Source: a virus
Virus record (IMG/VR): IMGVR_UViG_3300044732_000293
Span: 36,842 to 100,841 of that record
Strand: one strand, 5' to 3'
DNA: 64,000 bases
Shown: positions 1 to 36,866 of the stretch, one piece after another
Numbering within the stretch: the first letter of the stretch is position 1
Layout of the letters: every line of letters begins with the position of its first letter
The notes under the pieces: model-generated
The model's database searches: none
The model's input: only the letters and a program-made list of their open reading frames with translations
What the model was told of the DNA's origin: nothing
Program-made: the position numbers and the translations under genes

Positions 1-17
1 TGGGTGAACCAGATGAA

Positions 18-1835
18 ATGGAATATGATTATAGAAACTATGGTAACGTAGCATACCCTAGATTCTGGGTAGATAGTAATAAAACTACATTTAGATTATT
101 TAATGCTGCTAGTAATAATAGACATTTAGATGAAAGAGAAAGTGATCTTTTCTATGTAAAGAAAGGATATTTCTATTTATTCTTTAACGGGGTAAAAGAT
201 TTCTTCTGTGAGTCTGAGGTTAATACAGCTAATAGAGATTGGGAAGATGTAATGAACAAGCGTCATTATGATCCGCATAGATTTACAGATTATAGAGCTT
301 TATTTAGATCCGACTTTATTAAAGATGGTAACTATTATAAGTATGACTATTCTTTAAGTGTATCTAAATTATACTCTAACTATATTTCTTGGGGTAATAT
401 ATTACCAAGAGACTATGATCCTAAAGTGGCTGAGACATGTTATGTGTACAGACCTAATAGAGTTATTTATTCTTTACCACAGGAATCAGAACTTAAAAAA
501 GATAATTGGAGAATATTCTTAGCTAATAACTATAAATCATTCCAATCTAAAGTTACAGCTATTAAACCTATAAATAAAACAGGTGCTTTGTTCATGATGA
601 ACTACATGAGTCCTATGCAGTTTGTAGGTGTAGATACGGTACAGACAGATGTTGGTACTAAACTTACTGTAGGAGATGGTGGTTTATTTAATCAAGCTCT
701 TCAAAATTTAGTTAACACAGATGACTCTTATGAGTATGGTTCTAACCAAAGTAAGTTTTCATCTGTATCAACTCCTTACGGTGTAACATGGGTTAGTCAG
801 AATCAAGGAAAGATATTTAACTATGCTGGCGGACTAGAAGAGATTTCTAAGAATGGGATGAAATGGTGGTTTGCTAAATACTTACCTAGTGATTTATTAA
901 AGGTGTATCCAAATTATCCTTTACATGATAATCCTGTAAAAGGTGTAGGTGTTCAAGTGATCTATGATAATACTAATGAGATTATATACATTACTAAAAA
1001 AGACTTTAAGCCTAAACGTAGTGATTACGTATATGATAGCGATGGTTGTTTTTATATATCATCTAATAATGTAAAGACTGAAATACATCTTACAAATAAG
1101 GAATACTTTGAAGATGCTAGCTGGACTATATCATATGATCCTAAAGCTAAGAGTTGGTTAAGTTTCCATGACTGGGAACCCACTTTTATGTTACCAGGTA
1201 AGTCTCATTTCATGTCTGTTAACAAGGATACTATATGGAAGCATAATATGAAAACAGATGAATTCTGTAACTTCTACGATATAGACTATCCATTTGAGGT
1301 TGAGTTTATTTCTGCAACAGGTCAGCAGGTTAATAGCCTTAGAAGTGTTGAATATATGTTAGAGGCTTATAAGTATTCTAATGATGGTAAAGATAAGTTC
1401 CATGTATTAGATGAAAACTTTGATCAGGCTATTATATATAATTCTGAGCAAGTATCTGGTCTTCTTGAATTAGAAATTAAACCTAAAGGAAATCCTTTCT
1501 TAGCATTAAGCTATCCTATAGTTAATAGTGATTATATTAAGATCTTATTTGCTAAAGAAGAAAATAAATATAGATTTAACCAATTTTTTGATATTACAAA
1601 AGACCGTGGTGAATTTGATACATCTGGTTTAGTTCATCCTTCTATGTTTAATACAAAGGCTAATGGTTATGAATTTAATATTAATCCTGCATATGTAAAC
1701 TATAAGAAGGCTGTAACAGAACGTAAGAAATTCCGTCATAATGTAAACAGAGTGTTTTTAAAGAAACATGTGAGTGGTGATGTTAAATTACTATTTAAAT
1801 TATCTAATCAGAAATTACAAAGTTCTTTACGATGA
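18..1835 (+). CDS. Tail stabilisation/muzzle-like virion protein, C-terminal part (5'-truncated by window)
   Basis: Frame is open back to the window edge. Beta-rich sequence with motifs typical of crAss-like stabilisation proteins (YGSNQSKFS..TPYG, EISKNGMKWWF, WTISYD..W.SFHDW.P). Lies directly before the cargo genes. Confidence 0.7.
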   Translation: MEYDYRNYGNVAYPRFWVDSNKTTFRLFNAASNNRHLDERESDLFYVKKGYFYLFFNGVKDFFCESEVNTANRDWEDVMNKRHYDPHRFTDYRALFRSDFIKDGNYYKYDYSLSVSKLYSNYISWGNILPRDYDPKVAETCYVYRPNRVIYSLPQESELKKDNWRIFLANNYKSFQSKVTAIKPINKTGALFMMNYMSPMQFVGVDTVQTDVGTKLTVGDGGLFNQALQNLVNTDDSYEYGSNQSKFSSVSTPYGVTWVSQNQGKIFNYAGGLEEISKNGMKWWFAKYLPSDLLKVYPNYPLHDNPVKGVGVQVIYDNTNEIIYITKKDFKPKRSDYVYDSDGCFYISSNNVKTEIHLTNKEYFEDASWTISYDPKAKSWLSFHDWEPTFMLPGKSHFMSVNKDTIWKHNMKTDEFCNFYDIDYPFEVEFISATGQQVNSLRSVEYMLEAYKYSNDGKDKFHVLDENFDQAIIYNSEQVSGLLELEIKPKGNPFLALSYPIVNSDYIKILFAKEENKYRFNQFFDITKDRGEFDTSGLVHPSMFNTKANGYEFNINPAYVNYKKAVTERKKFRHNVNRVFLKKHVSGDVKLLFKLSNQKLQSSLR

Positions 1836-4336
1836 CCTATAATAAAACATTATTAAATAGTATACATAAACCTTTGAAAAAATCTCAGGGTGGTGGTACT
1901 TTTAATGGTAAACCTACTGTTAAACAAATCATGCAGATGCCTGATAAAAGGTATGCACCTAGTCCTGCAGTTATGAATACTAAAGCAGGTTTAGCAGCCG
2001 CTAGTATAATGAGTGGTCCTTTTTCATTTATACCTGGTACAGCATCTGCTGTATACGATCTTGGTACTTCAGCTCGTTATGCAATGGATGGTCAATGGGA
2101 TAATGCAAAAGAAGATTTAATATCTGCAGGTTTAAATGCAATTCCTACTGCTGGTGTATATGCTGCTTTAGCAGGTATGGGAAAGTTACAAAAAGCTGCT
2201 AGAGCCAGAGCTGCTATAAGAAGTGCAAAAGGTGCTATGAATGCAAAAGACATTGCAGGATCAAGTACTATCAGAAACAATATTACAGGTCTTGTCCAAG
2301 AGTTTGATAAAACTGGTAAAGAAATTAGTTCTATGAGACCTAGGTCAGCAGCTGAGGTTAAAGCTTATAATCAAAATTTAAAGAGTCAGTATAGAACAGG
2401 AGCTACTCCTGAAGGACCTGCTGAGCTTATGCCTTTTAGATCTCCTGATTTTGCAGGTGGCGGAATGATTGTAGATCCTATGGGACAGTGGGCTCATCCT
2501 GGAAAAAACACTCGTATACCTGGTGATGATGAAAATAATAAAACTAATATAACTATGAAAGGCGTTAACTATCCTGTACTTGGTATAGGTTCTAATGGTA
2601 AAAGTATGATGATGTATCCTGAACAAGATTATGAATTTGGTGGTGCCTCTTATGTAGATGAATATCCTATGATGGGTAAAGGTGGAGAAATGATACGTAG
2701 AGCTGATGGTTCATATTCTAAAAGAGGTTTATGGGATAATATTCGTGCCAATAAGGGTAGTGGTAAAAAGCCTACTAAACAAATGTTAGAACAAGAAAAG
2801 AAAATTAAAGCTAAAAATATGGCAAACGGTGGTACCAACAATCCTGGTTTTGAAGCCCTGCCTGAATATGTACAGGCTAAAATATTAAGTCAAATGGGTT
2901 ACGGTGGTTATTATAATCCTTATATGGAAGAGGGTGGTGAACCAAATGGTGGTATGGCATTAGGTCAGATTATGGCTGTAGCTGATAAGATGAATAAGTT
3001 ACGTGAGTTTGTTTCTCCTGAAGAAAACTTAGATCCATGGATTGCTTCTAAGTTAGCTGTAATGGATGATAGTGCAGCTGCTATTGCTGACTATATGATG
3101 TATAATCCTGAAGCTCAAGGAGAGGGTACTGAAGAAGAAATGGGAGAAGAGTATGAACAAGAGGGTGAAGAAGAAACAATGGCTAATGGTGGATACGTTG
3201 TAACTAGAAGTAATGATAGAAAAGGTAAGACACATAAAGTGACAGGTCCTGATGGAACTGTTAAATACTTTGGGGATTCTAAATTAGGACAACACCCTAA
3301 AGATCCTGAACGTAAAAAAGCTTTCTATGCTCGTCATAAAAAGAACTTAGAAAATAATCCTTTCTTTAGAGCATTTGCTAGAAAGACTTGGAAAGAAGGT
3401 GGTTCTACATTTAGTGGTAATGCATGGTATGGTAATGGCGGAACTAATAATGCAGGTTTTAAAGCTCTTCCTGATTATGTACAACATCAAATCTTATCTA
3501 ATATGGCCTACGGTGGACAACCTTGCTACGAATGTGGTGGTATGTACGCTGATGGCGGATACTACGATTGTCCTGATCAAGAAAAAGATCCTGTAACAGG
3601 TAAGTGTAGTGCTGAAGTAGCTCGTGGTAAACAAGCAGCGGCTGCTAATAAAGCAGCTAATGCTGATATGAATGCATGGGCTAAACAAGTAGCTGCTATA
3701 GATAAAGAAAATGCTAGACAAGATGCTGCTCAGTATGCTGGACAATTAGGATTTGATTATGATTGGATGCAGTCTCCTGTAGATAAAGCAGAGAAAAAAG
3801 CTGCTATGGCTCAATATAAACAATTCTTTCAGCAGAATCCTAAAACATTTGTAGCTGATGATACATCTGGATTTAGTCCTGAACAGAAATATATTATTGC
3901 TAGTAAGTTAAAACAGAAATCATCAACTCCTATGGGATCTAAAGCTTTTCAACAAAAGTTTAATCAAGATCCTAGGTTTATGGATTTAGGACGTTTACAG
4001 TCTGATATTGTACCAATGATGGGCGGATGGGATGCTACTAGAAATTATTTATTTGGTAATAAAGAATATGGTGGTATTCATATTAACCCAGCTAATAAAG
4101 GTAAGTTTACTGCATCAGCTAAAAGAGCAGGCATGGGTGTACAGGAATTTGCATCTCAAGTGCTAGCTAATAAGGAAGATTATTCTTCTACTCAAGTAAA
4201 AAGAGCTAACTTTGCACGTAATGCTGCAGGTTGGAATAAGGCTGATGGTGGTCCGATAGCTGGACAAGAAATGGATGTCACTCCAGAAGAGTTAGAAATG
4301 CTTCGTCAACAAGGTTATCAATTTGAAATATTATAA
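1832..4336 (+). CDS. Modular virion cargo protein/polyprotein with repeated x-x-x-G-G motifs
   Basis: 834 aa; about 14 [M/Y/W/F/K]xxGG motifs separate short modules, one module is duplicated; ATGA overlap with the upstream gene. Confidence 0.6.
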   Translation: MTYNKTLLNSIHKPLKKSQGGGTFNGKPTVKQIMQMPDKRYAPSPAVMNTKAGLAAASIMSGPFSFIPGTASAVYDLGTSARYAMDGQWDNAKEDLISAGLNAIPTAGVYAALAGMGKLQKAARARAAIRSAKGAMNAKDIAGSSTIRNNITGLVQEFDKTGKEISSMRPRSAAEVKAYNQNLKSQYRTGATPEGPAELMPFRSPDFAGGGMIVDPMGQWAHPGKNTRIPGDDENNKTNITMKGVNYPVLGIGSNGKSMMMYPEQDYEFGGASYVDEYPMMGKGGEMIRRADGSYSKRGLWDNIRANKGSGKKPTKQMLEQEKKIKAKNMANGGTNNPGFEALPEYVQAKILSQMGYGGYYNPYMEEGGEPNGGMALGQIMAVADKMNKLREFVSPEENLDPWIASKLAVMDDSAAAIADYMMYNPEAQGEGTEEEMGEEYEQEGEEETMANGGYVVTRSNDRKGKTHKVTGPDGTVKYFGDSKLGQHPKDPERKKAFYARHKKNLENNPFFRAFARKTWKEGGSTFSGNAWYGNGGTNNAGFKALPDYVQHQILSNMAYGGQPCYECGGMYADGGYYDCPDQEKDPVTGKCSAEVARGKQAAAANKAANADMNAWAKQVAAIDKENARQDAAQYAGQLGFDYDWMQSPVDKAEKKAAMAQYKQFFQQNPKTFVADDTSGFSPEQKYIIASKLKQKSSTPMGSKAFQQKFNQDPRFMDLGRLQSDIVPMMGGWDATRNYLFGNKEYGGIHINPANKGKFTASAKRAGMGVQEFASQVLANKEDYSSTQVKRANFARNAAGWNKADGGPIAGQEMDVTPEELEMLRQQGYQFEIL
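2819..3517 (+). repeat. Duplicated protein module (copies at ~2819-2908 and ~3428-3517)
   Basis: MANGGTNNPGFEALPEYVQAKILSQMGYGG versus YGNGGTNNAGFKALPDYVQHQILSNMAYGG. Confidence 0.85.
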
Positions 4337-4341
4337 GCATA

Positions 4342-7300
4342 ATGAAAATACGTATTACAGGAAAATCTTTACCTAAAGCTCAAAATGGAAAACCAATTAA
4401 TTATAAAAATTGGGTTGAGATTAATGGGACAAAAGTTTATGAGGGTGAAGCAGGATATGAAGAAGCTAGTAAAAAAGCTCAAGATGAATTTGCTCCAGCA
4501 AGAGCTCAGATAGCTGCGTGGAAAGCTAGTAAAGGTAAACCACCTGCTACAGTTACTGCACAAAGCAATCCACAAGCTGCAGGAACTTCTACACTTCAGA
4601 ATAATAATCCTTTTCAGGGAGTTACTAACTTTTTTAATAAGTCTGTTAAACCGTTATTCCAAAGAAATTCACAACAACCTACTGCTCCAGTTCAACAAAA
4701 TGTAAATACTGGTTTTAGTTTAGGTAATCCTGGTAACCAGACTTTTTTTACTCCAACGGGTAATAGTAGTAATCCTTATACATGGATGCCAACTGGTCAA
4801 AGTTTAGCTGCTCAACCTACACCACAAGCTTCACAGCCTGCTGCTCCTAGCAATCCATTACTAACCTGGAACAATCTTGGTTTACCTACAGATCCTGCTT
4901 ATATTAACAATGGTCTTATAGATAGTAAAAAAGGTTATGTAACAAAACAAGATACAGAGAAGTTGTTTAATGACATGAGATCACAAGGAAAGAATCTTCA
5001 GAACACTTTTGATACTGGATCTGCTAAAGATGTTAGACAAGCTATTGCTAATTATAATTCTCAATTTGGTACAGAGTTAAAAGATCCTAGATTGATTAAA
5101 CTAGGAGCTAAAGGTAGAAAAACTGTAGGACTTCTTGGAAAAGGAGCAGATGCTCTTCAACAAGGTATAGCTGTAACTAGTGCTCTTACTGACTTTATTG
5201 ATAATAAGAATCAGCAGAATAGATTTAACTCTTATATGAGAGATCAACAGATGTCTGATAATTTATATCCTGCTGTGCAAGGTTCTCGTGGAGATTATGT
5301 TCAGACAGGTACATCTTATGGTGCATTTAGACCAGATCAAATGGTTGTTAACAAAGGTATGTTTGCTCAAATGGGTGGAGAATTAAATATAGATAATATG
5401 AAAATACGTATAACATCTGGACCAAACAAAATGGAATATGGTGGTCAAGCTAAAAATGGCTATGGATTAGATCTAGGAAGTGGTCGTATCTATGAAGATA
5501 TGAATCAAAGTTCTTTTGATAATGCTAGCAATACTATGTCAGAAATTAAGAATCCTAATGAGCCGTATGTATTAGAAACAGAAGGTGATGAGGAAGTACT
5601 TCGTCCTGATGGAACTAAGTTTAGACTTAAAGGAAAGAGTCATGCTGAAGGTGGTATTAAAAATACTGCATCTCAGATACCAACAGGATCTTTTGTATAT
5701 TCTAAAAAACTTAAAGAAACTAATCCAGAAATCTTAGGAGCGTTTAATAAAACTTATAAGCGTGGTGGAGTATCTTATTCAGATATATCTAAGCAGTATG
5801 ATTTAAATAAGTTTAAAGCAATCTTAGATGATCCTAACGCAGATCCTTTAGCTAAGTCTACAGCTCAAATGATGAGTGATAATTATAAGAAGAAACTTGG
5901 TCAGTTAGCTTTAGCTCAAGAAAGTAAAAAAGGTTTTAAAGATGGTGTACCACAAGTGTATACAAACTCAGTTGAACAAGCTGCTTATGGTGGTTATATA
6001 GATACATTTGCATTAGGAGGTGCTTCTTATTTATTAGGAGCAGAACAAATAAATCCATATGCTGGTGGTAAAGAAAAAACTCCAACAGGAAAAAGTAATA
6101 AGTATGATCGTGGTAAAGAATATTTAGAAAACTGGGAGAAGTTTATTCCTGGTGTTAGTAAGTTATCTAATAAAGAAGCTCAGAGTAAAATCTATGATCT
6201 TATTTATGAACAGAATCCAGATGCTATTAATGAGATGTGGACAAAGTATGGTTTAACTAATGAGGGTAAGAAATATAAAGATTTAAGTGGTTTAACTAAA
6301 AATGGTAGATTTACTAAGCAACTTAGTGCAGATCAGTTAAAAAGTTTAAAGAAAGCTTATGTAGATGGATACTTTGGAGCTCGTCAATTAGATCCTAGTG
6401 CTATTCCACCTCCACCACCTCCTCCTCCGCCACCCCCTCCACCGCCTCCTCCACCACCACCGCCCCCTCCTCCTCCTCCATTGATTCCTCCTCCAATAGA
6501 GAGAGGTAAGATTCCTCCTGTTCCTTATGATTTTCTTGCTCCTGATAAGATGAGTATGTTGGCGGCTGGATTAAATCCTCCTAAGAAATACTTACCTTAT
6601 TATGCAAATTATAAGGCTAATTTACCTACTCCTACATTCTATAGTCCAGAACGTGAGCTAGCGGCTAATGCTGAACAAGCTAATATTATGACTCAGAGTC
6701 TTGCAAATTTTGCAAATCCTCAAGCATTTATGAGCAATGCATCTGCTGTACAAGGTAAGGCTGCTGAACAAGCTGCTAACACATTAGGTAAGTATAATAA
6801 CTTAAATGTTGGTGTAGCTAATCAGTTTTCTCCAATGATAGCTGAGACTTTGAATAAACAAGCTATGTATGCTGCTGAAAGAGCTAATGAGTTGTTTAAA
6901 GGTAATGTTATTGCTAATCAACAATATGATAACTCTAAACGAGCTTATGTTAATAATCTTGCTAAATCTTATGCTAATGCATGGAACAATCGTATGAACT
7001 TAGGAGATATTAATGATAGCATGGCTTATTATTATAAAGATCCTGCTACAGGAAGAAATGTATTTAAAGGTCCTGTTGGAAGTATAAAAGATTTAGGAAT
7101 GTATGGAAGTTCTTCAAACATGATGGGTATGAATCAACCAGCTCCTGTAGGTAATTTAGGTAATGCTTATAATAGTTTATATAAAGACTATTTAGCTCAG
7201 TTACAAGATTCTGACATGACTGCTGAGGAAAAAAAGAAACAAGCATCTAAATTAGCTAATTTAGGTATACAAAGTATGAGATCAACCAGAACAGTTAATT

Positions 7301-7392
7301 CAAGAAACCCTTTTCAATTTAATCAAAGAAACACACAGTATACTGGTTTAGAAAACTTCTCTGATGAAGATTTCATGGATGACCAAGAATAA
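4342..7392 (+). CDS. Virion cargo/ejection protein with GG motifs and polyproline tract
   Basis: 1016 aa, no Cys; E.EGDE..PDG..SHAEGG segment typical of crAss-like cargo proteins; MKIRIT occurs twice; 25-Pro run. Confidence 0.6.
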   Translation: MKIRITGKSLPKAQNGKPINYKNWVEINGTKVYEGEAGYEEASKKAQDEFAPARAQIAAWKASKGKPPATVTAQSNPQAAGTSTLQNNNPFQGVTNFFNKSVKPLFQRNSQQPTAPVQQNVNTGFSLGNPGNQTFFTPTGNSSNPYTWMPTGQSLAAQPTPQASQPAAPSNPLLTWNNLGLPTDPAYINNGLIDSKKGYVTKQDTEKLFNDMRSQGKNLQNTFDTGSAKDVRQAIANYNSQFGTELKDPRLIKLGAKGRKTVGLLGKGADALQQGIAVTSALTDFIDNKNQQNRFNSYMRDQQMSDNLYPAVQGSRGDYVQTGTSYGAFRPDQMVVNKGMFAQMGGELNIDNMKIRITSGPNKMEYGGQAKNGYGLDLGSGRIYEDMNQSSFDNASNTMSEIKNPNEPYVLETEGDEEVLRPDGTKFRLKGKSHAEGGIKNTASQIPTGSFVYSKKLKETNPEILGAFNKTYKRGGVSYSDISKQYDLNKFKAILDDPNADPLAKSTAQMMSDNYKKKLGQLALAQESKKGFKDGVPQVYTNSVEQAAYGGYIDTFALGGASYLLGAEQINPYAGGKEKTPTGKSNKYDRGKEYLENWEKFIPGVSKLSNKEAQSKIYDLIYEQNPDAINEMWTKYGLTNEGKKYKDLSGLTKNGRFTKQLSADQLKSLKKAYVDGYFGARQLDPSAIPPPPPPPPPPPPPPPPPPPPPPPPPLIPPPIERGKIPPVPYDFLAPDKMSMLAAGLNPPKKYLPYYANYKANLPTPTFYSPERELAANAEQANIMTQSLANFANPQAFMSNASAVQGKAAEQAANTLGKYNNLNVGVANQFSPMIAETLNKQAMYAAERANELFKGNVIANQQYDNSKRAYVNNLAKSYANAWNNRMNLGDINDSMAYYYKDPATGRNVFKGPVGSIKDLGMYGSSSNMMGMNQPAPVGNLGNAYNSLYKDYLAQLQDSDMTAEEKKKQASKLANLGIQSMRSTRTVNSRNPFQFNQRNTQYTGLENFSDEDFMDDQE
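6406..6480 (+). repeat. Polyproline-coding tract (25 consecutive CCN codons)
   Basis: Mixed cca/cct/ccg/ccc codons; a GC-rich island in an AT-rich genome. Confidence 0.95.
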
Positions 7393-15293: not shown

Positions 15294-18200
15294 ATGGCTT
15301 GTAGATTATCAGATGAACAGGTAGAAGCGTTATATACAACAGTTCTTGGTGATATAGTTGCTACTAAGAATAGTGGTGGAATATATAATCCAGATACTGC
15401 TATACGTACATTATATCAAACTTTAATGGCAGCGGGTGCTGACCAGACAAATGCTCTTGACTATATTCAGCATGTTCCAAGAATGATCAATGCTGCTTAT
15501 GGTAGTTTAGAAGAGATAGCTGATTACTTACAGGATAGTAATGTAAGTATTGATAATCTAAATAAAATGAGAAGAGACTTTAAGGACATTAATAATGTTA
15601 TGTCTTTTCTTGATTTAAATAATAACACTATAGAGATTATAGAAGAGATTGTAGAAGATAGCAATCCTTCCACTCCTGTAGTTCCTACTGATGTATACAC
15701 TGAGATTGAGAACTCAGATGTTGAAAAGAAACAGAAGTTATATAATAATCGTTCCTTTATAGCTGCTCCTGAAACGGCATTAGCTGTTTTTAATCAGGAA
15801 GCTCAAGACTACGATGGTGCTGTAGCAGAAGATAACATTGCAGATCCTGATCCTAAGAAGAAAACTTACTATGCTGTAGTAAGAAAGATCAATGCTTTAA
15901 TGAACTTATTAAATGCTAGTACTGCTAACAATCTTAAAATGGGTACCACAACTGGTATCTTTATGAATTTAGTAAAGGCTTCATCTATTGATGAGGCTGA
16001 CTTATATGTTTCAGACACAAAATTTATTAACCAGAGTGAAGAAAACAGAGCATATCATAATGATTCTGCTTTGGCACTCGTATATACAGACAAAAATGGT
16101 AAAGTATTATATTTTGATGAAGAAGGTAATATCACAAGTAAAGAAGCTGGCGGTAAACTTGTTTACGGCAAAATAAGAAATGTTTACTCTGATGCTAGAA
16201 CAGGAAACAAGTATGTGCCTAGAGTACAAACTGTAGAGAGAAAGGTTGAGAAAGGTATGGGAACTCAAGAAGAGTTACAAGCTGAAAGACAAAAAGAGAT
16301 TGATGTTTTAGAAGGTGCTCGTAAATTTCTTAAAGAAAATCCTACAGGATCTTTAATGTTTTCTATTACTCCTGGTAGAAATGGATATGTTAATGAAGAC
16401 TTTAGTACTATTAATACTATTGGTTCTATACAATTACCTGATGGATTTAAACCTACAGTGGCTAAAGAAGATACTGGTATCTATAAGTCTGGTGGTGTAT
16501 ACTTTCATGTTCCAGGTTATTCTCTTCCTATTCTTGTACGTAGACCTAAGTTTAGCCAATTAAATAATAATCTAGCTGAGAACTTAGCTGACTTGTTATT
16601 TGATAATACTAATAATAAACAGTCTAATGCTGAAAAGATTGCTATTGTAAAACAGTTTACATATAGTAATGACACTAAAGTATTTGACCGTGACGGTAAG
16701 ATTTTTGTAAAGCAAGGAGAGCAAGAGTTAGATACCACTGTTGCTGCTAATCGTGAAGCATTCTTACAGAACTTAAATGGTCAAGTAGTAAACATTAATA
16801 AAGACTTAGTTAATGGTTACGTAGATATGCCTGTAAATCTAGATGGTAGTGTACAAGTTCAAAAGGAGTTATACAATAACTTTTTAACTAGTAACTTCTA
16901 TACTCACTTAGCTAAAAATGCTGAGGGTAAGGTGGTAAGCATGAATGCTTATAACAATATCTTTCCTACAGTAGAATCTCAAACTAAGTTATTTGGAGAA
17001 ACTAAGACTACTAAAACTGCTCCTGTTAGTTTAACGGAAGCTACTCCTACAGATAATAAGATTAGTCCTTTAGCTGAATTGCTAAAGAATACTGACTTCT
17101 CTTTAAAGAAATCTATATTAGAGAACAGTGATGCTACAGAAGAGCAGATTGAAAAAGCAAGAGCTTGGTATACTAGTAGCCCATTAGCTAAAGTGGTTCC
17201 TTTTGAAACTATGTTTCATGTAGTGAACTCAAATGCATTAGCTACATTTACTTTATCTGGTATTACTCTATTCCAAGGATCTAACTACACTGACTTATAC
17301 CATGAGGGATGGCATGCTTTCTCTCAATTGTTTTTAACTAGAGATCAGAAAGTTGATTTATATAATGAAACTAGAAAGCTTACAGGATCTTTTAAAACTG
17401 CTGATGGTAGAACTATAAAGTTCAGTGCAGCTAGTGATATTCAATTAGAAGAATTCTTAGCAGAAGACTACCGTAAATACGGTATGGCTGATGGTAAGTA
17501 TATAGTTGCTGGTAGAGGAACTCGTAATACATTATTTAGACGTATACTAAACTTCTTAAAGGCTGTATTTAAAGGATACAGTATTAAAGATGCTATTAGT
17601 GAAGCTACAGCTATTCCTAAGATAGGAGAGCTTTATGAAAAGCTTTACATAGGAAATATTAATGACTATAGTGCATCATTAAACAATGTACAGTTTAAGA
17701 TATTAAACAAAGGTGCTCAACCTTTAGATGATAAGAATATTGACGGTGGATTAAACTACCAAGATTCTATGACTCTTGTAGAAACTATTGATTCATTGAT
17801 GGCTTCTACATTACAAGACTATGGAGTTAATCTTGGTGTACTATTTACTAATCCAGAATTTACTGCTCCATTATATGCAGAGATTAAGAATAAATTAGAG
17901 AACATGTTAAATGCTCCTGATCTTTCTGAAAGCTCTAAAAGAATATTAAACTTTGCTTTAAATGAGTGGGGTGATTATACAGCTGTTAGCAAAGGAGAAC
18001 AGGAGTTAGGTGTTATTGCATTTCATAAGAAGAGATCTTCTTATTTAACTTTTGATGAAAAGTATTCAGATCTAACTGGAGCTGAACAAGATATTAATGA
18101 AAATGCAGCTGATGTAGTTAAAGATGAAGACAACCAATTATCTATTACAGAAAATGAAGCTCGTGAAAGTTTTGGAGCTAATGCTTTTGAACGCAAGGGT

Positions 18201-21200
18201 AATGAGTTATCAGTTAGAGAACTAGCTAGTAACCAAACTGTATATTTAATTAAGAGTCTTCCAGCTTTAGATAAGAACGGTAAGGTGGAAATGAATGCTT
18301 TAGGTGTTCCTAAATTAACTGACTTTAATAGAACCTGGGGAGTTGTTATAAATACTGTACAGGGAGCTATTGATGAGGTGGATATGTATAGAAAGCTTAG
18401 TGAAGCATCTACTAGATTTCCTGAATTAAAGGCTTTAGTTGAACGTCTAGGTGATCCTATGGAAAAGACTCAGACTTCAGACTGGCCGGCTATGAACATG
18501 TGGATTAACTTCCATCGTGATTTTAGTGTGTACCGTGTACCTGTTAGAGAAGTTCGTATAGTTAAAAGTGAAATTCCAGGAGAAGAAGGATCTACATTTA
18601 GTGTAGAGTTCACTGAAACTAACCCTACATTTAAGCAAGTTGAGAATACCTTTAAGTCTCAGTTTGATGCTGTAAGAAACAATAAGTATGTACGAAATAC
18701 TCCTCAAGGTAATCAATTAAATATAGAGTCTATACTTAATGATTTTCCTAAGAGCACTCTTATGAGTGGTACATCTAAACTTAACTCTGAGCAAGCTATT
18801 AAGTTTTTAAAAGCTATTGGTTTATACATGACTGATAACCAAGCAGTTAGAGAAAGTTTAAATGAAAATTATACAGCAGTTACTTATTTACATTCTGCTC
18901 TATCTAGAATTAACTATTTTAATTCTTCTAAAGAGGCTGGTAGTAAAATAACTATCAATAGTCCAATAGACTTTTTACGTAATGAATTAAAGAACGTTAC
19001 TACTAAAGATAGTAAGGGTAACACTACTCTTTTACATAAAGGGGAGTCTTCTAATATAGAAAAGCTTCTTAATATAGAAGGAACTAACTCTGGTAAGTAT
19101 AGTAATAATTCTGTAGAAAACGTTAATGGAGATTCTATATTTGATCTATCATTAAACAATACAGTTACTAAACAGTTTGCTGAGTTGAATGCTGCAGGAA
19201 AGAACTATAATGATGTAGTTGGAAAGCCTCACATGGCTCATTTAAATTTTAGAAATAATCCAGCTGCTAAATACAGCATTTGGATGAACAGTATGTTCCA
19301 TATTCCTACAGGTAACTTTGAGACAGCTAACATGAATCAAAGAAGAGTGGGTAAGACTAATGCTGAAACTGTTACTATTGATATAGTAAACTTAGATGGT
19401 ATTAAAGAAGTGGTTAGCAATGAGGCTAAAGCTCAATTTAGAGTGAATGGTATTAAGACTACTTCTGCTGACCCAGCTACTAAGTTTATAATGGACTTAC
19501 ATACTATGTTGATGAGAGGTGTGATTGAAGCCCCTAGACATGCTTCTAAATCTACAGCATATGGTTACTCAGTATCTTTACTCAATACACCATTTAATGC
19601 CAAATCTCGTCACTTATACATCAGTAGTGAGTACTTTGCAGATGATGCTGTAGCTAACAATGCTACGGTAGCTATGCTTAAGCCAAAGATTGCTGCTGAG
19701 ATGGAACGTATAGCTATGCTTAGGGCAGGTATGCTTCCTAATATTCCTGGGTTTAATGAAAGAGGTCAAACCTTTACAATGTTTGATGACATTCTTTCTG
19801 ATGGATTAAAGGCAGACTTAATAGAAATGGCTAATGCTGATGACTCATTAGTGCTTCTAGAAGATGCTGAGTTATCAAAAAGAATATCTAATGATATATC
19901 TAAGTATATAAATAGATTAACTCAAGAGAATCTAGATGTGTTTGGTGAAATGCCATTCATTTCTAAAGATATCTTAAGAGGTGGAGCTAGAGGATCTGCT
20001 AAAAGTATTGTGAGTTTAATAGGTGCCGGGGCTAATTTAACTGATGCTCAACTTAAGACAATAGCTCTTAAGTCATTCACTGTAAATGCTCTTATCCATA
20101 ATATGGAAAGCATGGCTATGGTCTATGGAGACTTAGCTATGTATAATCATAATAAAGAAGAGTTTCATAAGCGTAATGCTTCTATAGGATCTACTGGTAG
20201 AATTTTTGCTTCTGGTCAAGCTACTACTAACTTTGTAAATAACCTTGGTAGAGCCTATGCTAAAAAGATAGGAGCTACTGAAAGAACCTTTGATGGCAGT
20301 ATTAACTCAGTGATATTTAAAGATAATAACGTTGAATCAGTATATTATAATGAATATCTTGATGCTCTTGTTGCTAAAGGATATACTAAAGAACAAGCTG
20401 CTTCTGTATTAAAACCTTATTCAGAAATGAATGAAGGTGATGCTCAAGGATGGGTAACTTTTGATTCTTACCGTATGTTCTCTATTTTAGAAGGAGCATG
20501 GTCTGAGAAGCAGAATGATCTTTATAACAAGATTATTAATGAAGAAGAGGTTGATCCTAAAGAAATTAGTGAATTCTTCCCTACAAAGAAGTTTCAGTAT
20601 GCTGGTCCTGTTAAGAGTGACAAGTTACATTTACAAGCTTTTCATAAGTTCTCATTAGTACCGTTAATCCCTAGTTTAATTAAAGGGACTAATATGCAAA
20701 CCGTGCATGATAACTTAGTTAAACAACAAGTGGATTATGCTCTATTTGAATCTGGAAGTAAGTTAGCTACTATTACTAAAGATGGTCAGTATGATGATCT
20801 ATATGATAATAAAGAAGAGAGAACTACTAAGCCTTGGAATCAAGGAGATGCTGAGTACACTACTAATAAAGTGTTTATTCAGTATTTAAAAGATCAAGTG
20901 GATATTCAATCTACTTGGAAAAACAAAACTGTATTCTCCACTCAGCTTAGAAAGTTGATTATCAATGACTTATTTAAACAAGGTATAGCTACATCTAAAG
21001 ACTTTAACAAGTTAGTAACTGACTTTGAGGGTTTACTTGATGATCTTCAGACTAAAAAGAAGAATGAGTTACTTGCTGAAGCTGGTTGGACACAAGATAA
21101 AAAAGGAAACTATAACGGTAGTGTAAAAAGTCTAATGGACTTTGTTGAAAGAGAGTTAGCTCGTCAAGAACTACCTGAGCATGATGTAGACTTTGTAAGA

Positions 21201-24200
21201 GAGAGTTCTGATATTAATAGTATTAAGAGAGACTTAAGCTTTAGCCTTAACGCTGAGAAGATTGAAAAGTTGTTAAACTCTATCGTAATTAAACGATTAG
21301 TTCGTCAGAAGATGAACGGTGAGCAGTTAGTACAAGTTTCTGGAGCTGGCTTTGAGTCTAGTACTAAGTTAACTAACCCTACAGAAGAAGATATTAAGAA
21401 CTATCGTGGTACTAATGACTTACCTACATACCGTCCTGGTAAAGGAAAGAACGGTAAGACTAGTGCAATGAAAGTTAAGATTGCAATGAAAGGGGACTAT
21501 TATAAGTTACTTGAGCTTAAACATACTGACGGAGAAAAGATTGGTACAAGAGAGCGTTTGAATGAAGTGCTTAAAAATGATGAGTGGTTAGATAAAAACG
21601 ATAACCGTAAGCTTATTACTATGGTAGGTGTACGTATTCCTGTGCAAGGATTAAACTCTATGGAGTTTATGGAAGTGTATGAGTTCCTTCCTGAAGAAGC
21701 AGGGTCTATTGTTATACCTCCAGCTGAGATTGTGGCTAAATCTGGATCTGACTTTGATATTGATAAGTTAACTATATTCCAACCTAACTATTCTAAGAAT
21801 AGCAAGCAGGCTAAGTATAGTACAAATGATAATGTTAAAGGTACAGAGAATAAGATTATTGAAAAGATCCGTGAGATTTTAGAGCATCCTGATAACTTTG
21901 AAGCTCTTATTCGTCCAAACAATACTGATATTGTTAAAGGAGTAGCAGATAACTTAGCTAGTAAGAATGTTCAAGGATACAATCCTTTGGCTAATAAAAC
22001 TAGAGAAACTGCTAATAAGATTAGTCCTACTCGTACTTTAGAACCTAGATATAATCTATATAAGCATGAGTCTAATAACATTGGGAAAAAGACTTTAGGT
22101 ATTGGTGCTGTAGATAATGCCTACTCATCTATCTTTAAAAGAATAGGTGCTAGATTAGAGACTCAGTATACTCATTATCCAATTGATTTTGAAACTGGAG
22201 AATATAAGAGAGATAAAAAAACCGGTAAGATTGTACAACAAGTTCGTCCTATTAACATTAGAATGAAGCATAACAGTATGACTGTAGGTGGTAAATCTTA
22301 TATTTCTTTATCTGATATTAATACAGTTAGTGGTGAAAAGATTTCTGACTTAATCTCTCAATTGATGAACGGTTGGGTGGATATTGAAAAAGATGCTTGG
22401 ATCTTTAATATCAATGGTAACAATGTAGCTGGTCCAGTATTGTTATTCATGATTGAATCAGGTGTTGATTTTAAGACAGCTGCTCATTTTATATCTCAAC
22501 CTTTAATTGTTGATTATATCAAACAAAGAGCTGCTTCCAATAGTCCTTTCTTTGAAGCAAGTGGCAAAGGAGAGAATAAGGGTAAAGGACTTAATAAATT
22601 TAATATTAAGAAGCAGTTTATACTAGACAACTTTGAGGATGATTTACCTATTAATAAAAGTACAGGAGAACCTATTGTAAGCAATGATGGTATATATAAA
22701 ATCATTAATAAGTACAATGAGGGTGTTGAATATACTAGTGATAATCTATTAGGTGTTATTGAGAATAAAGACACTACTTCTTCTATGGCTAAAGCGGCTT
22801 TATTACATTTCTTTGAATTAGAAGACTTAATGAGTCAATTGACCAATATTAAACTAACGGTTAACTTAGATACAGCTCCTTCTAAATCATTGTTTTCTGC
22901 TCAAGAAAGACTTAGTAAAATATCTAAGTTAAATATTGTAGATGCTGTGCCAGCTGACATGGTTAGAAAGATATTGAATGAGTCTCCTATTAAGTCATTC
23001 CTTGTACAAGACTTTCAGTTAAAACTATGGGAGCCTTTAATGAAGCTTAGAGGAGATGCTAACATAAATAGCTTCTTAATAAATAAGATTGCTACTAAGT
23101 CTTATACAAATAGTTTTGATGATGCTGAGAAATATGTAGCTACATTTAAAAATGACCTTCCTTTATATCTTTTACAGAATCATTTAAAGGGGATGGACAT
23201 TACTAAGATTACTGAATACAAAGGCTTACTTATAGATAACGCTATTCCTGTACAAAATGTTCAGATTAAGAACGGTGCTTATGTAAAAGAAGGCGTAATG
23301 TATGTAGATATAGATCAGATAAAGTCTGACTTTGCAAGCATGGCTTATACAGATAAGGGTACTTATAAAGAATCAGGATTGGCTACTCTTCCTGCTCAAG
23401 CTTTTAAGATGGGTGAGACAAGTGCTAACTTCCAAGAGTATTCTAACTATGTACTAGAGCGTGAGTATTTAAGATCTATCCTTCCAGTAAGAGATAAAGA
23501 AAGCAGAGAAAGCTATGAGAATAGACTTAGAGATAGAGCTTTGGAAAGAACATTTAACTTCTATACTATGCTTAAGTCTGATAATAGTATTGCAGATGAG
23601 TTTAATAGAATTAAATCTAAGTATCCTGAGTTAGAAAAAGACTACATGATCTTTGATCAATTAGGTTATAGTCCAGGTAGCAAGTTTGATATGAACAAAC
23701 TTAAGACTCTTAAGTTAAAGTCAAGTAAGCTTGATGCTGATATGGCTAATGTTCTTCATGAAAATCTTCAGAGACTTGCTGACCCAGCAACAATTAAAGT
23801 AACTAATCCTGTAGCTAACGCTGAGATATCTAAGTTCTTTAGTAGAATGATTATATCAGAATACTTGAGAGCAGGTATTAGCAAGACTAATGATAGTATT
23901 GCAATGATTTTACCTTCAGAATCTTTAATGAAGCTTTTGGAAGAGCCTATGAGTAAGTTGACTAAAGAAGGATTGACTGATGAGTTTTTAGAAAAGTATT
24001 CTAATTTGTTTGATTCAAACTGGTCTAAGTCTGCTACAGCAGTTCGTAATAGATTCAGAAACTATATCCAAACTACTAAACCTACAATACAAGAACCTAT
24101 TACAGAAGCTACTGCGGTAACTCCTATCACTCCTTCTATAGCTAGTTTTAAAAATAAGTTTGCAAAGAGTGAGCTTGAGCCTATATTAAACGCTAATAAA

Positions 24201-24653
24201 AACACTATATTTGTATACCCTGTAAATGAAAACGGTACAGGTGATAACATTGCTAAAGTGTACAGTGACGCTGGAAATAGTGCGGGTGTAGTTTTAAAAG
24301 CTGTAGGAAAGAACTGGACAGATGCCACTTATGATTCTAACATTAGTTTTATAAACCAATCATTAGATGTTATTGGTGCTCATTTAAGTAATGGTTTCCA
24401 AGTAGCATTCCCTGAGTTTGGTTTAAACTTAACTAAGGTTAAAGAGGAATCAGTAGATTTTTTAACTAAGTCTGCTCCTAAAACGTTTGACTATTTGGCT
24501 ACAGAGTTATATAAAAGATTTGGATACGTTCATCCTGGAGCTGAGCAAATGCTAGGCTTTAGAAAAGAGTTCCAATCCAATCAACCTATATCAGACCAAG
24601 AGATTGATGCTGCTATTAATAAGAAATTTGAAGATTCTAAAAACTGTAATTAA
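15294..24653 (+). CDS. Virion-packaged double-psi-barrel RNA polymerase with N-terminal zincin-like motif
   Basis: 3119 aa; catalytic KSGSDFDIDK (DFDIDK at 21750-21767) preceded by RIPVQG; HEGWH at 17301-17315 with downstream EEFLAE; layout matches the crAss-like vRNAP. Confidence 0.92.
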   Translation: MACRLSDEQVEALYTTVLGDIVATKNSGGIYNPDTAIRTLYQTLMAAGADQTNALDYIQHVPRMINAAYGSLEEIADYLQDSNVSIDNLNKMRRDFKDINNVMSFLDLNNNTIEIIEEIVEDSNPSTPVVPTDVYTEIENSDVEKKQKLYNNRSFIAAPETALAVFNQEAQDYDGAVAEDNIADPDPKKKTYYAVVRKINALMNLLNASTANNLKMGTTTGIFMNLVKASSIDEADLYVSDTKFINQSEENRAYHNDSALALVYTDKNGKVLYFDEEGNITSKEAGGKLVYGKIRNVYSDARTGNKYVPRVQTVERKVEKGMGTQEELQAERQKEIDVLEGARKFLKENPTGSLMFSITPGRNGYVNEDFSTINTIGSIQLPDGFKPTVAKEDTGIYKSGGVYFHVPGYSLPILVRRPKFSQLNNNLAENLADLLFDNTNNKQSNAEKIAIVKQFTYSNDTKVFDRDGKIFVKQGEQELDTTVAANREAFLQNLNGQVVNINKDLVNGYVDMPVNLDGSVQVQKELYNNFLTSNFYTHLAKNAEGKVVSMNAYNNIFPTVESQTKLFGETKTTKTAPVSLTEATPTDNKISPLAELLKNTDFSLKKSILENSDATEEQIEKARAWYTSSPLAKVVPFETMFHVVNSNALATFTLSGITLFQGSNYTDLYHEGWHAFSQLFLTRDQKVDLYNETRKLTGSFKTADGRTIKFSAASDIQLEEFLAEDYRKYGMADGKYIVAGRGTRNTLFRRILNFLKAVFKGYSIKDAISEATAIPKIGELYEKLYIGNINDYSASLNNVQFKILNKGAQPLDDKNIDGGLNYQDSMTLVETIDSLMASTLQDYGVNLGVLFTNPEFTAPLYAEIKNKLENMLNAPDLSESSKRILNFALNEWGDYTAVSKGEQELGVIAFHKKRSSYLTFDEKYSDLTGAEQDINENAADVVKDEDNQLSITENEARESFGANAFERKGNELSVRELASNQTVYLIKSLPALDKNGKVEMNALGVPKLTDFNRTWGVVINTVQGAIDEVDMYRKLSEASTRFPELKALVERLGDPMEKTQTSDWPAMNMWINFHRDFSVYRVPVREVRIVKSEIPGEEGSTFSVEFTETNPTFKQVENTFKSQFDAVRNNKYVRNTPQGNQLNIESILNDFPKSTLMSGTSKLNSEQAIKFLKAIGLYMTDNQAVRESLNENYTAVTYLHSALSRINYFNSSKEAGSKITINSPIDFLRNELKNVTTKDSKGNTTLLHKGESSNIEKLLNIEGTNSGKYSNNSVENVNGDSIFDLSLNNTVTKQFAELNAAGKNYNDVVGKPHMAHLNFRNNPAAKYSIWMNSMFHIPTGNFETANMNQRRVGKTNAETVTIDIVNLDGIKEVVSNEAKAQFRVNGIKTTSADPATKFIMDLHTMLMRGVIEAPRHASKSTAYGYSVSLLNTPFNAKSRHLYISSEYFADDAVANNATVAMLKPKIAAEMERIAMLRAGMLPNIPGFNERGQTFTMFDDILSDGLKADLIEMANADDSLVLLEDAELSKRISNDISKYINRLTQENLDVFGEMPFISKDILRGGARGSAKSIVSLIGAGANLTDAQLKTIALKSFTVNALIHNMESMAMVYGDLAMYNHNKEEFHKRNASIGSTGRIFASGQATTNFVNNLGRAYAKKIGATERTFDGSINSVIFKDNNVESVYYNEYLDALVAKGYTKEQAASVLKPYSEMNEGDAQGWVTFDSYRMFSILEGAWSEKQNDLYNKIINEEEVDPKEISEFFPTKKFQYAGPVKSDKLHLQAFHKFSLVPLIPSLIKGTNMQTVHDNLVKQQVDYALFESGSKLATITKDGQYDDLYDNKEERTTKPWNQGDAEYTTNKVFIQYLKDQVDIQSTWKNKTVFSTQLRKLIINDLFKQGIATSKDFNKLVTDFEGLLDDLQTKKKNELLAEAGWTQDKKGNYNGSVKSLMDFVERELARQELPEHDVDFVRESSDINSIKRDLSFSLNAEKIEKLLNSIVIKRLVRQKMNGEQLVQVSGAGFESSTKLTNPTEEDIKNYRGTNDLPTYRPGKGKNGKTSAMKVKIAMKGDYYKLLELKHTDGEKIGTRERLNEVLKNDEWLDKNDNRKLITMVGVRIPVQGLNSMEFMEVYEFLPEEAGSIVIPPAEIVAKSGSDFDIDKLTIFQPNYSKNSKQAKYSTNDNVKGTENKIIEKIREILEHPDNFEALIRPNNTDIVKGVADNLASKNVQGYNPLANKTRETANKISPTRTLEPRYNLYKHESNNIGKKTLGIGAVDNAYSSIFKRIGARLETQYTHYPIDFETGEYKRDKKTGKIVQQVRPINIRMKHNSMTVGGKSYISLSDINTVSGEKISDLISQLMNGWVDIEKDAWIFNINGNNVAGPVLLFMIESGVDFKTAAHFISQPLIVDYIKQRAASNSPFFEASGKGENKGKGLNKFNIKKQFILDNFEDDLPINKSTGEPIVSNDGIYKIINKYNEGVEYTSDNLLGVIENKDTTSSMAKAALLHFFELEDLMSQLTNIKLTVNLDTAPSKSLFSAQERLSKISKLNIVDAVPADMVRKILNESPIKSFLVQDFQLKLWEPLMKLRGDANINSFLINKIATKSYTNSFDDAEKYVATFKNDLPLYLLQNHLKGMDITKITEYKGLLIDNAIPVQNVQIKNGAYVKEGVMYVDIDQIKSDFASMAYTDKGTYKESGLATLPAQAFKMGETSANFQEYSNYVLEREYLRSILPVRDKESRESYENRLRDRALERTFNFYTMLKSDNSIADEFNRIKSKYPELEKDYMIFDQLGYSPGSKFDMNKLKTLKLKSSKLDADMANVLHENLQRLADPATIKVTNPVANAEISKFFSRMIISEYLRAGISKTNDSIAMILPSESLMKLLEEPMSKLTKEGLTDEFLEKYSNLFDSNWSKSATAVRNRFRNYIQTTKPTIQEPITEATAVTPITPSIASFKNKFAKSELEPILNANKNTIFVYPVNENGTGDNIAKVYSDAGNSAGVVLKAVGKNWTDATYDSNISFINQSLDVIGAHLSNGFQVAFPEFGLNLTKVKEESVDFLTKSAPKTFDYLATELYKRFGYVHPGAEQMLGFRKEFQSNQPISDQEIDAAINKKFEDSKNCN

Positions 24654-24659
24654 TAAAAT

Positions 24660-30301: not shown

Positions 30302-30736
30302 TTATTTATTTTCTGTAGTGAATGGTACTCTGCCTATATAACAATCTTCATCCCAGCCCATATGGCGTTTAAAACCATTCAGTAGGCTATGTAAATTTGC
30401 TGCTCCTACTGGATTATGAGAATGTACTGCACAGCGTCCTAACTTAATGTTATTCATCTGACAGTATTCTACTAACCAATTAGCACAGTCTATACCTGTT
30501 TTCTCTTTATACTCTGTATACTTAGGATGTTGATATCCCTGCTGAGCAAGCTGACTAAAATAGTCATTAGTATGCTCATCAGCTAAGTCATGATCAAAGC
30601 TTATAAAGTCTGGCATTCCATTTTTAGTTATCCATTTTACAAACTCATCGTAGTTTCTTACTACATACCATGGTTTATACCCCGGAAGAGTTTCTGTAGG
30701 TGTTCTTACATCATCAAGATATAATGCTTTTTTCAT
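30302..30736 (-). CDS. Cyclic-phosphate-processing receiver-like (cREC) domain protein
   Basis: LYLDDVR, ISFDHDL, TG.DCA.WL and VHSHNP.G motifs; start placed at MKKAL (ATGA overlap). Confidence 0.75.
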   Translation of the reverse strand: MKKALYLDDVRTPTETLPGYKPWYVVRNYDEFVKWITKNGMPDFISFDHDLADEHTNDYFSQLAQQGYQHPKYTEYKEKTGIDCANWLVEYCQMNNIKLGRCAVHSHNPVGAANLHSLLNGFKRHMGWDEDCYIGRVPFTTENK

Positions 30737-30894
30737 AACCAATCTATATTAAGTAGTGATTCTTTAGTTTGTCTTATAACCAATCTAATACCTTTACATC
30801 TAAGTCTTCTAACAGCTCTTTTAAGAATTCTTTTTATGTAAAGATCTTCTATATGCGTAGATGAAAGTCTATTGATTATCTGTTCCTTTTTCAT
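30733..30894 (-). CDS. Small basic hypothetical protein (53 aa)
   Basis: MKKEQIINRLSSTH...NIDWL; its TGA overlaps the next ATG. Confidence 0.5.
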   Translation of the reverse strand: MKKEQIINRLSSTHIEDLYIKRILKRAVRRLRCKGIRLVIRQTKESLLNIDWL

Positions 30895-36549: not shown

Positions 36550-36866
36550 ATTTCTTCAGTTGGGTTTATACCTTGTTCAAGGCAGTTAACAATTCTGTCA
36601 TGTCCAGCTTTAGCTTCTTCCCATGTACAGTATCTCCACATTTCTTCATCGTACTCTCCACCAAAGATCATGGTTTCAAATAATACCGGTTTACCACCTG
36701 GGTCCCAGTTATGATCTAAATGTAAAAACACTGTAGATATTCTTTGGTCATTTACAACATTATCTCCTATGTGTTTAATAGGACTACGTAAATCTCCATT
36801 CAAAGGATACTCTCCTTCAGGTAGCATTTCTGTAGTGTGGTCTTCATTTAACTTATACCATCTCAT
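36546..36866 (-). CDS. Conserved-looking phage hypothetical protein
   Basis: ISTVFL.LDH...PVLFETMIFGG...RY.TWEEA..GH. Confidence 0.6.
   Translation of the reverse strand: MRWYKLNEDHTTEMLPEGEYPLNGDLRSPIKHIGDNVVNDQRISTVFLHLDHNWDPGGKPVLFETMIFGGEYDEEMWRYCTWEEAKAGHDRIVNCLEQGINPTEEI

Follow-up and report, generated by a model that had tools for sequence, protein, structure and literature searches.

The open reading frame (ORF) at positions 1832-4336 (plus strand) of the viral DNA analysed here encodes a chain of small modules joined by a conserved five-residue peptide that ends in an invariant Gly-Gly (GG). The DNA is a window of 64,000 nucleotides, positions 36,842 to 100,841 of IMG/VR record IMGVR_UViG_3300044732_000293; it is part of a 100.8-kb viral contig, estimated to be 78% complete, and the source phage is uncultured. 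This single ORF specifies 834 residues (91.0 kDa), and its product is almost certainly a C1-type cargo (ejection) protein of a crAss-like phage, with a modular architecture. We tentatively propose that its junctions are a processing signal cut by a zincin-like domain packaged in the same particle, an account that, taken as a whole, we place a little below an even chance.

The junction peptide and the modules it delimits

GG occurs 19 times in the 834-residue protein, against 10.2 expected (20 of 5000 shuffles are as high), and the pattern [MYWFK]xxGG occurs 15 times against 2.3 +/- 1.5 (0 of 5000). Every motif that an earlier sequence-only reading had listed for 1832-4336 is present in the translation. 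The enrichment is specific to this ORF: the 35 other ORFs of the window carry the pattern at background level and none is enriched, the next gene, ORF 4342-7392, having three copies. A logo and a frequency comparison with non-virion proteins had been suggested as a check, and the logo of 1057 distinct joints shows M (31%), Y (20%), F (9%), W (5%) or K (9%) at position -4 and A, Q, K or E at position -3, followed by any residue and GG; the junction consensus is [M/Y/F/W]-[A/Q/K/E]-x-G-G.

At true joints GG is invariant, both across distinct sequence contexts (37/37, 33/33, 61/61, 32/32, 21/21, 19/19 and 17/17, the x positions varying) and in the alignment, where it is kept in 32-34 of 34 sequences. 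Judged from these sequences, such invariance goes beyond what a plain flexible linker would be expected to show. The glycine codons at joints are used as elsewhere (GGT 65% vs 59%), and the three codons before them vary freely, leaving at most about six bases common to joints; thus, the constraint lies on the protein and not on the DNA. The joints fall in low-confidence, probably disordered stretches of the AlphaFold model (mean pLDDT 45), in which only the P and H modules are confidently folded. In the literature linking Crassvirales or cargo proteins with the terms Gly-Gly, diglycine or polyvalent, we found no description of the junction motif.

About 12 of the 17 GG sites in the query are true conserved joints, and four are not. 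YEFGG (267-271) is part of a beta domain (211-281) that is modelled with confidence, and its GG (270/271) is replaced in about 40% of aligned relatives; at EPNGG, the start of the A module, the second glycine is not conserved; YECGG and YADGG both lie within a CxxC...C-x11-C knuckle. The claim that GG motifs bracket compositionally distinct modules is therefore upheld for the roughly 12 conserved joints and fails for YEFGG and YADGG.

To define the modules, 121 relatives were split at GG and the pieces were clustered into a module dictionary. The protein divides as follows.

1832-1897 (+), residues 1-22: header N0, a predicted helix (5-18), then K-K-S-Q-G-G-G; a header ending in GG is conserved in relatives
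1898-2464 (+), residues 23-211: N1, Ala/Gly-rich and moderately hydrophobic; ends FAGGG
2465-2686 (+), residues 212-285: P+p beta domain, one fold, pLDDT about 80-87; ends MGKGG
2687-2833 (+), residues 286-334: B1, basic, pI 10.4; ends MANGG
2834-2908 (+), residues 335-359: T module, copy 1; ends MGYGG
2909-2938 (+), residues 360-369: y mini-module; ends MEEGG
2939-3193 (+), residues 370-454: A, acidic, pI 4.1; ends MANGG
3194-3403 (+), residues 455-524: K, basic, pI 10.3, a mobile cassette; ends WKEGG
3404-3442 (+), residues 525-537: s mini-module; ends YGNGG
3443-3517 (+), residues 538-562: T module, copy 2; ends MAYGG
3518-4075 (+), residues 563-748: C cassette, with a four-Cys knuckle, a long helix (593-636) and a short tail, mobile; ends KEYGG
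4076-4252 (+), residues 749-807: H, a basic three-helix unit, pLDDT about 80; ends KADGG
4253-4333 (+), residues 808-834: Z, the C-terminal tail, always last and present in 84 of the 121 relatives

The composition of the modules is as had been described, with three basic units (pI 10.4, 10.3 and 10.1), one acidic unit (pI 4.1) and all four cysteines within residues 565-592; the DNA-binding role suggested for the basic modules is hypothetical. The duplicated module with the motif at both ends is also real: the two T copies are identical at 18 of 25 positions and both end in M-x-Y-G-G, and T is the commonest module, with 94 copies in 121 proteins. The GG that closes B1 (333/334) is present in 34 and 32 of 34 sequences, K is preceded by GG in 37/37 distinct contexts and followed by it in 32/32, and the 13-residue s has it on both sides (33/33 and 61/61). 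N1 comes first in 17 of the 18 architectures that also have P, and its Kyte-Doolittle maximum is 1.4, compared with 1.7 in gp45, the C1 protein of phage crAss001. The only cysteines of the protein form a zinc-knuckle-like unit, CxxC-GG-x4-GG-x3-C-x11-C (residues 563-592; window 3518-3607), and some relatives keep just the second Cys pair. In relatives, Z gives weak DUF7210 matches. Fold searches with the full-length model returned weak cupin-like matches for the P+p domain (Z 5.4-5.7) and single-helix matches, and nothing beyond these.

Exchange of modules at the joints

The protein search returned more than 2000 relatives, which typically share 70-96% identity across only 20-45% of the query. 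The ends of the shared segments are not scattered at random. Among 428 internal BLAST segment ends, 64% lie within five residues of a GG, compared with 21% for random positions, so module boundaries in homologues coincide with GG, as the sequence-only reading had it. The small module dictionary recurs in 44 distinct backbone architectures among the 121 relatives, in which the backbone modules are hardly ever reversed relative to N1<P<B1<T<A<s<H<Z. Two cassettes alone, C and K, move: C stands before P (right after N1) in some relatives and after s (before H) in others, and K stands before B1 or after A. The remaining differences are insertions or losses, and the inserted cassettes include ART-PolyVal, YkuD, DUF5872, DUF5754, DUF3597 and lysozyme-like N-termini. 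The modules had been pictured as swappable cassettes that might occur in different order in related phages. Exchange, insertion, loss and relocation at GG bear this out, whereas free reordering does not hold, because the backbone from N1 to Z is nearly fixed and only C and K change place.

In most relatives the chain is encoded by two genes, 4-12 nucleotides apart. The upstream gene stops at K-K or N-K, exactly where x-x-G-G would follow. One type of downstream gene retains the motif in an N-terminal leader, which is either very short (M-Y-Y-Q-Q-G-G) or 30 residues long and ends N-K-Q-N-G-G. One module, H, also occurs as a stand-alone gene, as had been anticipated. It is found in 2026 cluster representatives, proteins whose lengths run from 87 to 1865 residues; when it stands alone it often carries a leader of 17-20 residues ending [Y/F/M]-K-K-G-G, and some copies are leaderless. 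In phage cr10_1, the portal and capsid genes flank a stand-alone H gene whose leader ends YKNGG; taken together, the leaders of stand-alone or split-off modules include YKNGG, MYYQQGG, M..[YF]KKGG, MAEGG and MGRGG. These gene splits and motif leaders mean that the motif travels with the module that follows it, and that continuity of the chain is not needed at every joint. The annotated "peptidase" beside the cr10_1 stand-alone H gene was considered and set aside: it has only an atypical Rib domain, with no PHROG or PDB match.

The cargo genes and a candidate protease

The contig is without terminase, portal and capsid genes, which relatives of 128-130 kb have; these relatives encode terminase, portal, CrAss_Ring_1 and CrAss_Ring_2. 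The gene order is CrAss_Ring_2, CrAss_Ring_1, a small ORF, a 1674-residue virion structural protein and then ORF 1832-4336, followed by four further large genes and a 3119-residue giant with an RNA-polymerase D-F-D-I-D motif. This position, directly downstream of the muzzle-position gene, matches that of crAss001 C1 (gp45, 842 residues). The 834-residue protein is probably packaged into the particle and ejected, as its gene position and homology suggest. Megablast of 20 kb against phage records gave no match; the whole protein found nothing in a sequence search of the PDB and no Pfam match even at E<=1, and this copy has no recognised enzymatic domain. The flanking genes and the giant's putative active site are:

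3-1835 (+): muzzle-position gene, C-terminal 610 of 1674 residues, a PHROG virion structural protein after CrAss_Ring_2 and CrAss_Ring_1
4342-7392 (+): next cargo gene, 1016 residues; header S-L-P-K-A-Q-N-G; GG-rich over residues 345-576
17301-17369 (+): HExxH...E (H670, E671, H674, E692) of the 3119-residue giant cargo protein (ORF 15294-24653), the candidate processing protease

The 1674-residue protein gave no significant BLAST match to the crAss001 muzzle, gp44. The K-S-L-P-K-A-Q-N-G header of 4342-7392 resembles the headers of relatives of the 834-residue protein, and its stretch at residues 345-576 holds seven GG sites. Elsewhere in the window, a 146-residue protein (30302-30742, minus strand) matches the cyclic-phosphate processing receiver domain cREC_REC (2.6e-21). 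Among the structural genes in the late region of one relative, G001 (loci L045-L047), are a gene for a GNAT acetyltransferase (6.4e-12) and one that matches the C-terminal domain of arginyl-tRNA-protein transferase (4.2e-6).

Homology to gp45 is confined to the H module (BLAST 1e-5, residues 744-817 vs gp45 371-438; hidden Markov model (HMM) 1.7e-7, gp45 376-428). HMMs of nine other modules, P among them, gave no significant match to gp45, T being marginal at 0.011. The two proteins are alike in gene position, in size (842 vs 834 residues), in an Ala/Gly-rich hydrophobic N-terminal part and in GG sites, of which gp45 has 20, including FDTGG, FAEGG and FAYGG. They differ in that the motif is much denser and more regular in the 834-residue protein, and in that the portal-binding domain PF25725 (crAss_CARG1; gp45 424-555, 2.3e-66) is not detected in it. 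Within the Crassvirales, the epsilon group is reported to have neither gp45 nor the polymerase block (PMC10172136, PMC7886860).

A dedicated GG protease was sought by family. Clan CE (PF02902, Ulp1) is absent from this genome and four relatives 92-100% complete, a search that did not include PF00770 (adenain family). The C39 peptidase (PF03412) is absent from the same five phage genomes, a host enzyme not being tested, as are JAB (PF14464) and ThiF (PF00899). No peptidase family was found when 38 late ORFs from a complete relative of 129.8 kb were compared with Pfam, a scan of 49 further ORFs of this genome showed no peptidase among the 25 of 35 families listed, and no prohead protease is recognisable. 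In crAss001, an E1-like ThiF gene adjoins a weak Prok-JAB match (gp76-gp77, 24395-26793; gp77 at 4.9e-4, which does not reach the cut-off). Enzymes of the JAB type cleave behind Gly-Gly; this ThiF/JAB-like pair is absent from the present phage group. The crAss001 protein gp66 matches PF13650 (8.8e-7) and is a retropepsin-like aspartyl protease.

The giant encoded downstream is a different kind of candidate. Its Y-H-E-x-x-H-x-F-x-Q...Y-x-E signature is invariant in 23 diverse homologues (35-65% identity), and the region aligns with the HEAFH of crAss001 gp47, a virion protein (E 3e-5). The model of the region has a mean pLDDT of 61 (core 80-94); its fold matches are weak, with a best Z of 4.4 and M34 PPEP-3, lethal factor and PPEP-2 at Z 4.0, 3.7 and 3.5 over the HExxH helices, and Foldseek gave no match. 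According to a passage in doi 10.1101/2020.03.07.982082, a zincin-like protease domain was assigned to the phi14:2 gp65 orthologues (Yutin 2018), and cleavage of fused giants in the RNA-polymerase block is suggested. Those orthologues resemble our giant in that an HExxH domain packaged in the virion is encoded within the block of RNA-polymerase genes; in our giant the domain is fused to the polymerase in a single protein of 3119 residues. We infer that this zincin-like domain may be the protease that acts on the GG joints. The same giant (15294-24653) unites the zincin-like HExxH...E (residues 670-692), the D-F-D-I-D motif and a C-terminal DUF7831, and in crAss001 the HExxH is in gp47, separate from gp49 and gp50. 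A second HExxH (H-E-F-S-H, residue 174) occurs in the 1821-residue protein at 24660-30125; it may be due to chance or lineage-specific, as the 1270-residue counterpart in a complete relative has no HExxH.

Several known systems share part of this design. Adenain has the consensus (M/I/L)-X-G-G|X, with a hydrophobic residue at P4. The junctions here are like the sites of adenain and ASFV pS273R in that an invariant GG, shortly preceded by a hydrophobic residue, marks the boundaries of virion components; however, that hydrophobic residue is the fifth back from the last glycine, one position further out. Considering also that no Ulp1/clan CE (PF02902), C39 or JAB protease was found in the five genomes, the analogy to adenovirus and ASFV, in the form proposed, does not stand. 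The resemblance to double-glycine leaders is one of form only: the header N0 has 22 residues and the stand-alone H leaders 17-20 residues ending in GG, whereas no PF03412 partner is found in the phage genomes. The internal proteins of phage T4 and the inner-body proteins of phiKZ are small, often basic, packed in the head and injected with the DNA, and they carry leaders or start as precursors that are trimmed by a head protease, a prohead serine protease that cuts at L/I-x-E or S/A/G-x-E; in contrast, the motif here ends in GG and the modules are concatenated in one gene. Polyvalent proteins of phages and conjugative elements (Iyer et al. 2017, PMC5512222) are likewise virion-associated polypeptides of many unrelated, shuffled modules, relatives of the 834-residue protein bear ART-PolyVal, YkuD and lysozyme-like cassettes, and processing of polyvalent proteins by a zincin-like MPTase has been proposed (PMC5512222). 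They differ in that PMC5512222 describes no junction motif (the words "glycine" and "linker" are absent from its text) and in that the copy in our window has uncharacterised modules only, with no recognised enzymatic domain.

Processing signal, hinge or tag

We propose the following. The protein would be synthesised late, enter the particle and be expelled before the DNA. Its chain consists of about 14 small units that follow one another from N to C terminus in a nearly constant order, namely the header, hydrophobic N1, the beta domain, alternating basic and acidic modules, H and the conserved tail, and cassettes are gained, lost and moved in evolution exactly at the junctions. The junction peptide would be a protein-level processing signal, which we judge the most likely of its possible roles. 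A single chain with one set of packaging and anchoring elements would then bring many payloads into the capsid, and the zincin-like domain of the giant encoded 11 kb downstream would cut the canonical junctions, either inside the particle or during ejection. Cleavage at the joints itself we regard as possible, at somewhat less than an even chance. We count in its favour the enrichment specific to this ORF, the invariant GG, the motif leaders on stand-alone modules, the probable disorder of the joints and the conserved virion-packaged zincin-like domain in the adjacent giant.

The crAss001 particle provides further evidence. In the cryo-EM structure, gp45 is ordered at 214-245 in the tail and at 425-552 on the portal, with 12 copies per virion, the same as the portal (PMC10172136). 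Each piece is flanked by canonical motifs, and the canonical motifs FDTGG21, FAEGG264, KAFGG333 and FAYGG563 are all outside the ordered pieces, which we count for cleavage. By peptide-mass fingerprinting we re-analysed the MALDI peak lists of the SDS-PAGE bands from the 2018 description of crAss001 (PMC6235969), leaving out bands 11-13. Band 3 gave gp50 and gp47, band 4 gp49 and gp44, band 5 the portal (12 peptides), and bands 6-9 gp26/gp22, gp22/gp25, gp25 and gp23, respectively. gp45 (90.7 kDa, 25 limit peptides) was not above shuffled controls in any band examined (p 0.28-1.0); the intact protein was not found in the 70-270 kDa bands, although the portal, with the same copy number, is seen, and gp45 is not named among the proteins that the 2018 text reports for the 13 gel bands. 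This result fits fragmentation weakly. The supplement of the 2023 structure paper by Bayfield et al. (PMC10172136) holds no peptide table. The two top gel bands (>300 kDa) contain gp44 and gp34 masses (PMC6235969, supplementary file 14), suggesting SDS-resistant tail complexes.

A number of observations weigh against cutting, and several of them favour an uncut hinge, in which the whole chain spans tail and capsid, GG lets the modules unfold and refold while they are threaded N-to-C, and the aromatic residue or Met caps the preceding module. There is no direct evidence of cutting anywhere. Bayfield et al. read gp45 as one chain bridging tail and capsid (PMC10172136), and the ordered model 425-552 starts at A-F-G-G-W and runs continuously through three GG sites, which must therefore be uncut; one of them is the joint homologous to KADGG of the 834-residue protein. 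These uncut sites have N, N and I at position -4, not an aromatic residue or Met. The nearly fixed module order fits a threaded chain, the joints lie in probably disordered stretches between small independently folding units, and no dedicated GG protease is recognisable in the genomes searched. Genes that end at a joint, such as the upstream genes of split chains, drop the GG, and a second type of downstream gene starts directly with the module and has no motif (M-A-N-K-P-N-N-P). Proline follows GG at some widespread joints, being only mildly depleted overall (3.6% vs 5.6%), and cutting every joint would yield peptides of 10-25 residues (T, s and y) that are themselves highly conserved. The zincin fold of the HExxH region, with its best Z of 4.4, is unconfirmed by modelling, and the gel result loses force in that gp46, which has no motif, is also unreported and minor co-migrating proteins can be missed. 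Nevertheless, plain linkers rarely hold an invariant dipeptide and a hydrophobic residue at fixed offset over hundreds of unrelated junctions; stand-alone proteins keep the motif at their very N-terminus, a place that calls for no hinge; relatives that split the chain into two genes at a joint show that continuity is not essential there; and intact gp45 was not seen in the gel bands, a weak point. We therefore consider an uncut hinge a serious contender, to which we give roughly one chance in three.

It is also conceivable that each copy of the motif binds a repeated site in the procapsid, portal or tail barrel, and that avidity loads and orders the cargo, much as the internal proteins of phage T4 carry a capsid-targeting sequence. 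The strict conservation of five residues and the motif leaders on stand-alone head-module genes, including the cr10_1 gene between portal and capsid, would suit such a docking or packaging tag. However, enrichment of the motif is not seen in the giant cargo proteins that share the particle, the motif is found at module boundaries only, and gp45 SAYGG (206-210), next to the tail-bound segment, lies outside the ordered 214-245; we consider docking improbable. The joints could instead be a by-product of recombination, short conserved DNA guiding in-frame cassette exchange with no function in the protein. This would produce breakpoints at joints and mosaicism as extreme as that observed, in which only 20-45% of the query is shared at 70-96% identity; yet with ordinary Gly codon use, three variable preceding codons and at most about six shared bases, a DNA-level signal is disfavoured, and the longer conserved modules (T, s and B1) would be far better substrates for homologous recombination, so that we give this explanation very little weight.

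In the human gut the commonest viruses are the crAss-like phages, which are also widespread elsewhere and deliver several megadaltons of internal protein. The junction peptide offers a simple rule by which thousands of cargo proteins that lack annotation could be divided, from sequence, into their functional modules, and the modules of relatives include ADP-ribosyltransferase, L,D-transpeptidase and lysozyme-like cassettes. If the joints are not cut, the peptide would be an unusual invariant hinge that defines the legal recombination points in an ejected protein. If they are cut, they would reveal a new maturation system of phages and provide the virion's conserved zincin domain with a substrate, and the published picture of gp45 as a single chain threaded through the portal would change. 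Extending the processing signal to the Crassvirales, we propose a junction code in which payloads are strung together through [M/Y/F/W]-x-x-G-G, loaded together and freed by a virion zincin-like protease, a generalisation that we think somewhat likelier to fail than to hold. If it is true, each phage would inject a lineage-specific cocktail of small proteins and peptides that evolves by cassette exchange at the junctions.

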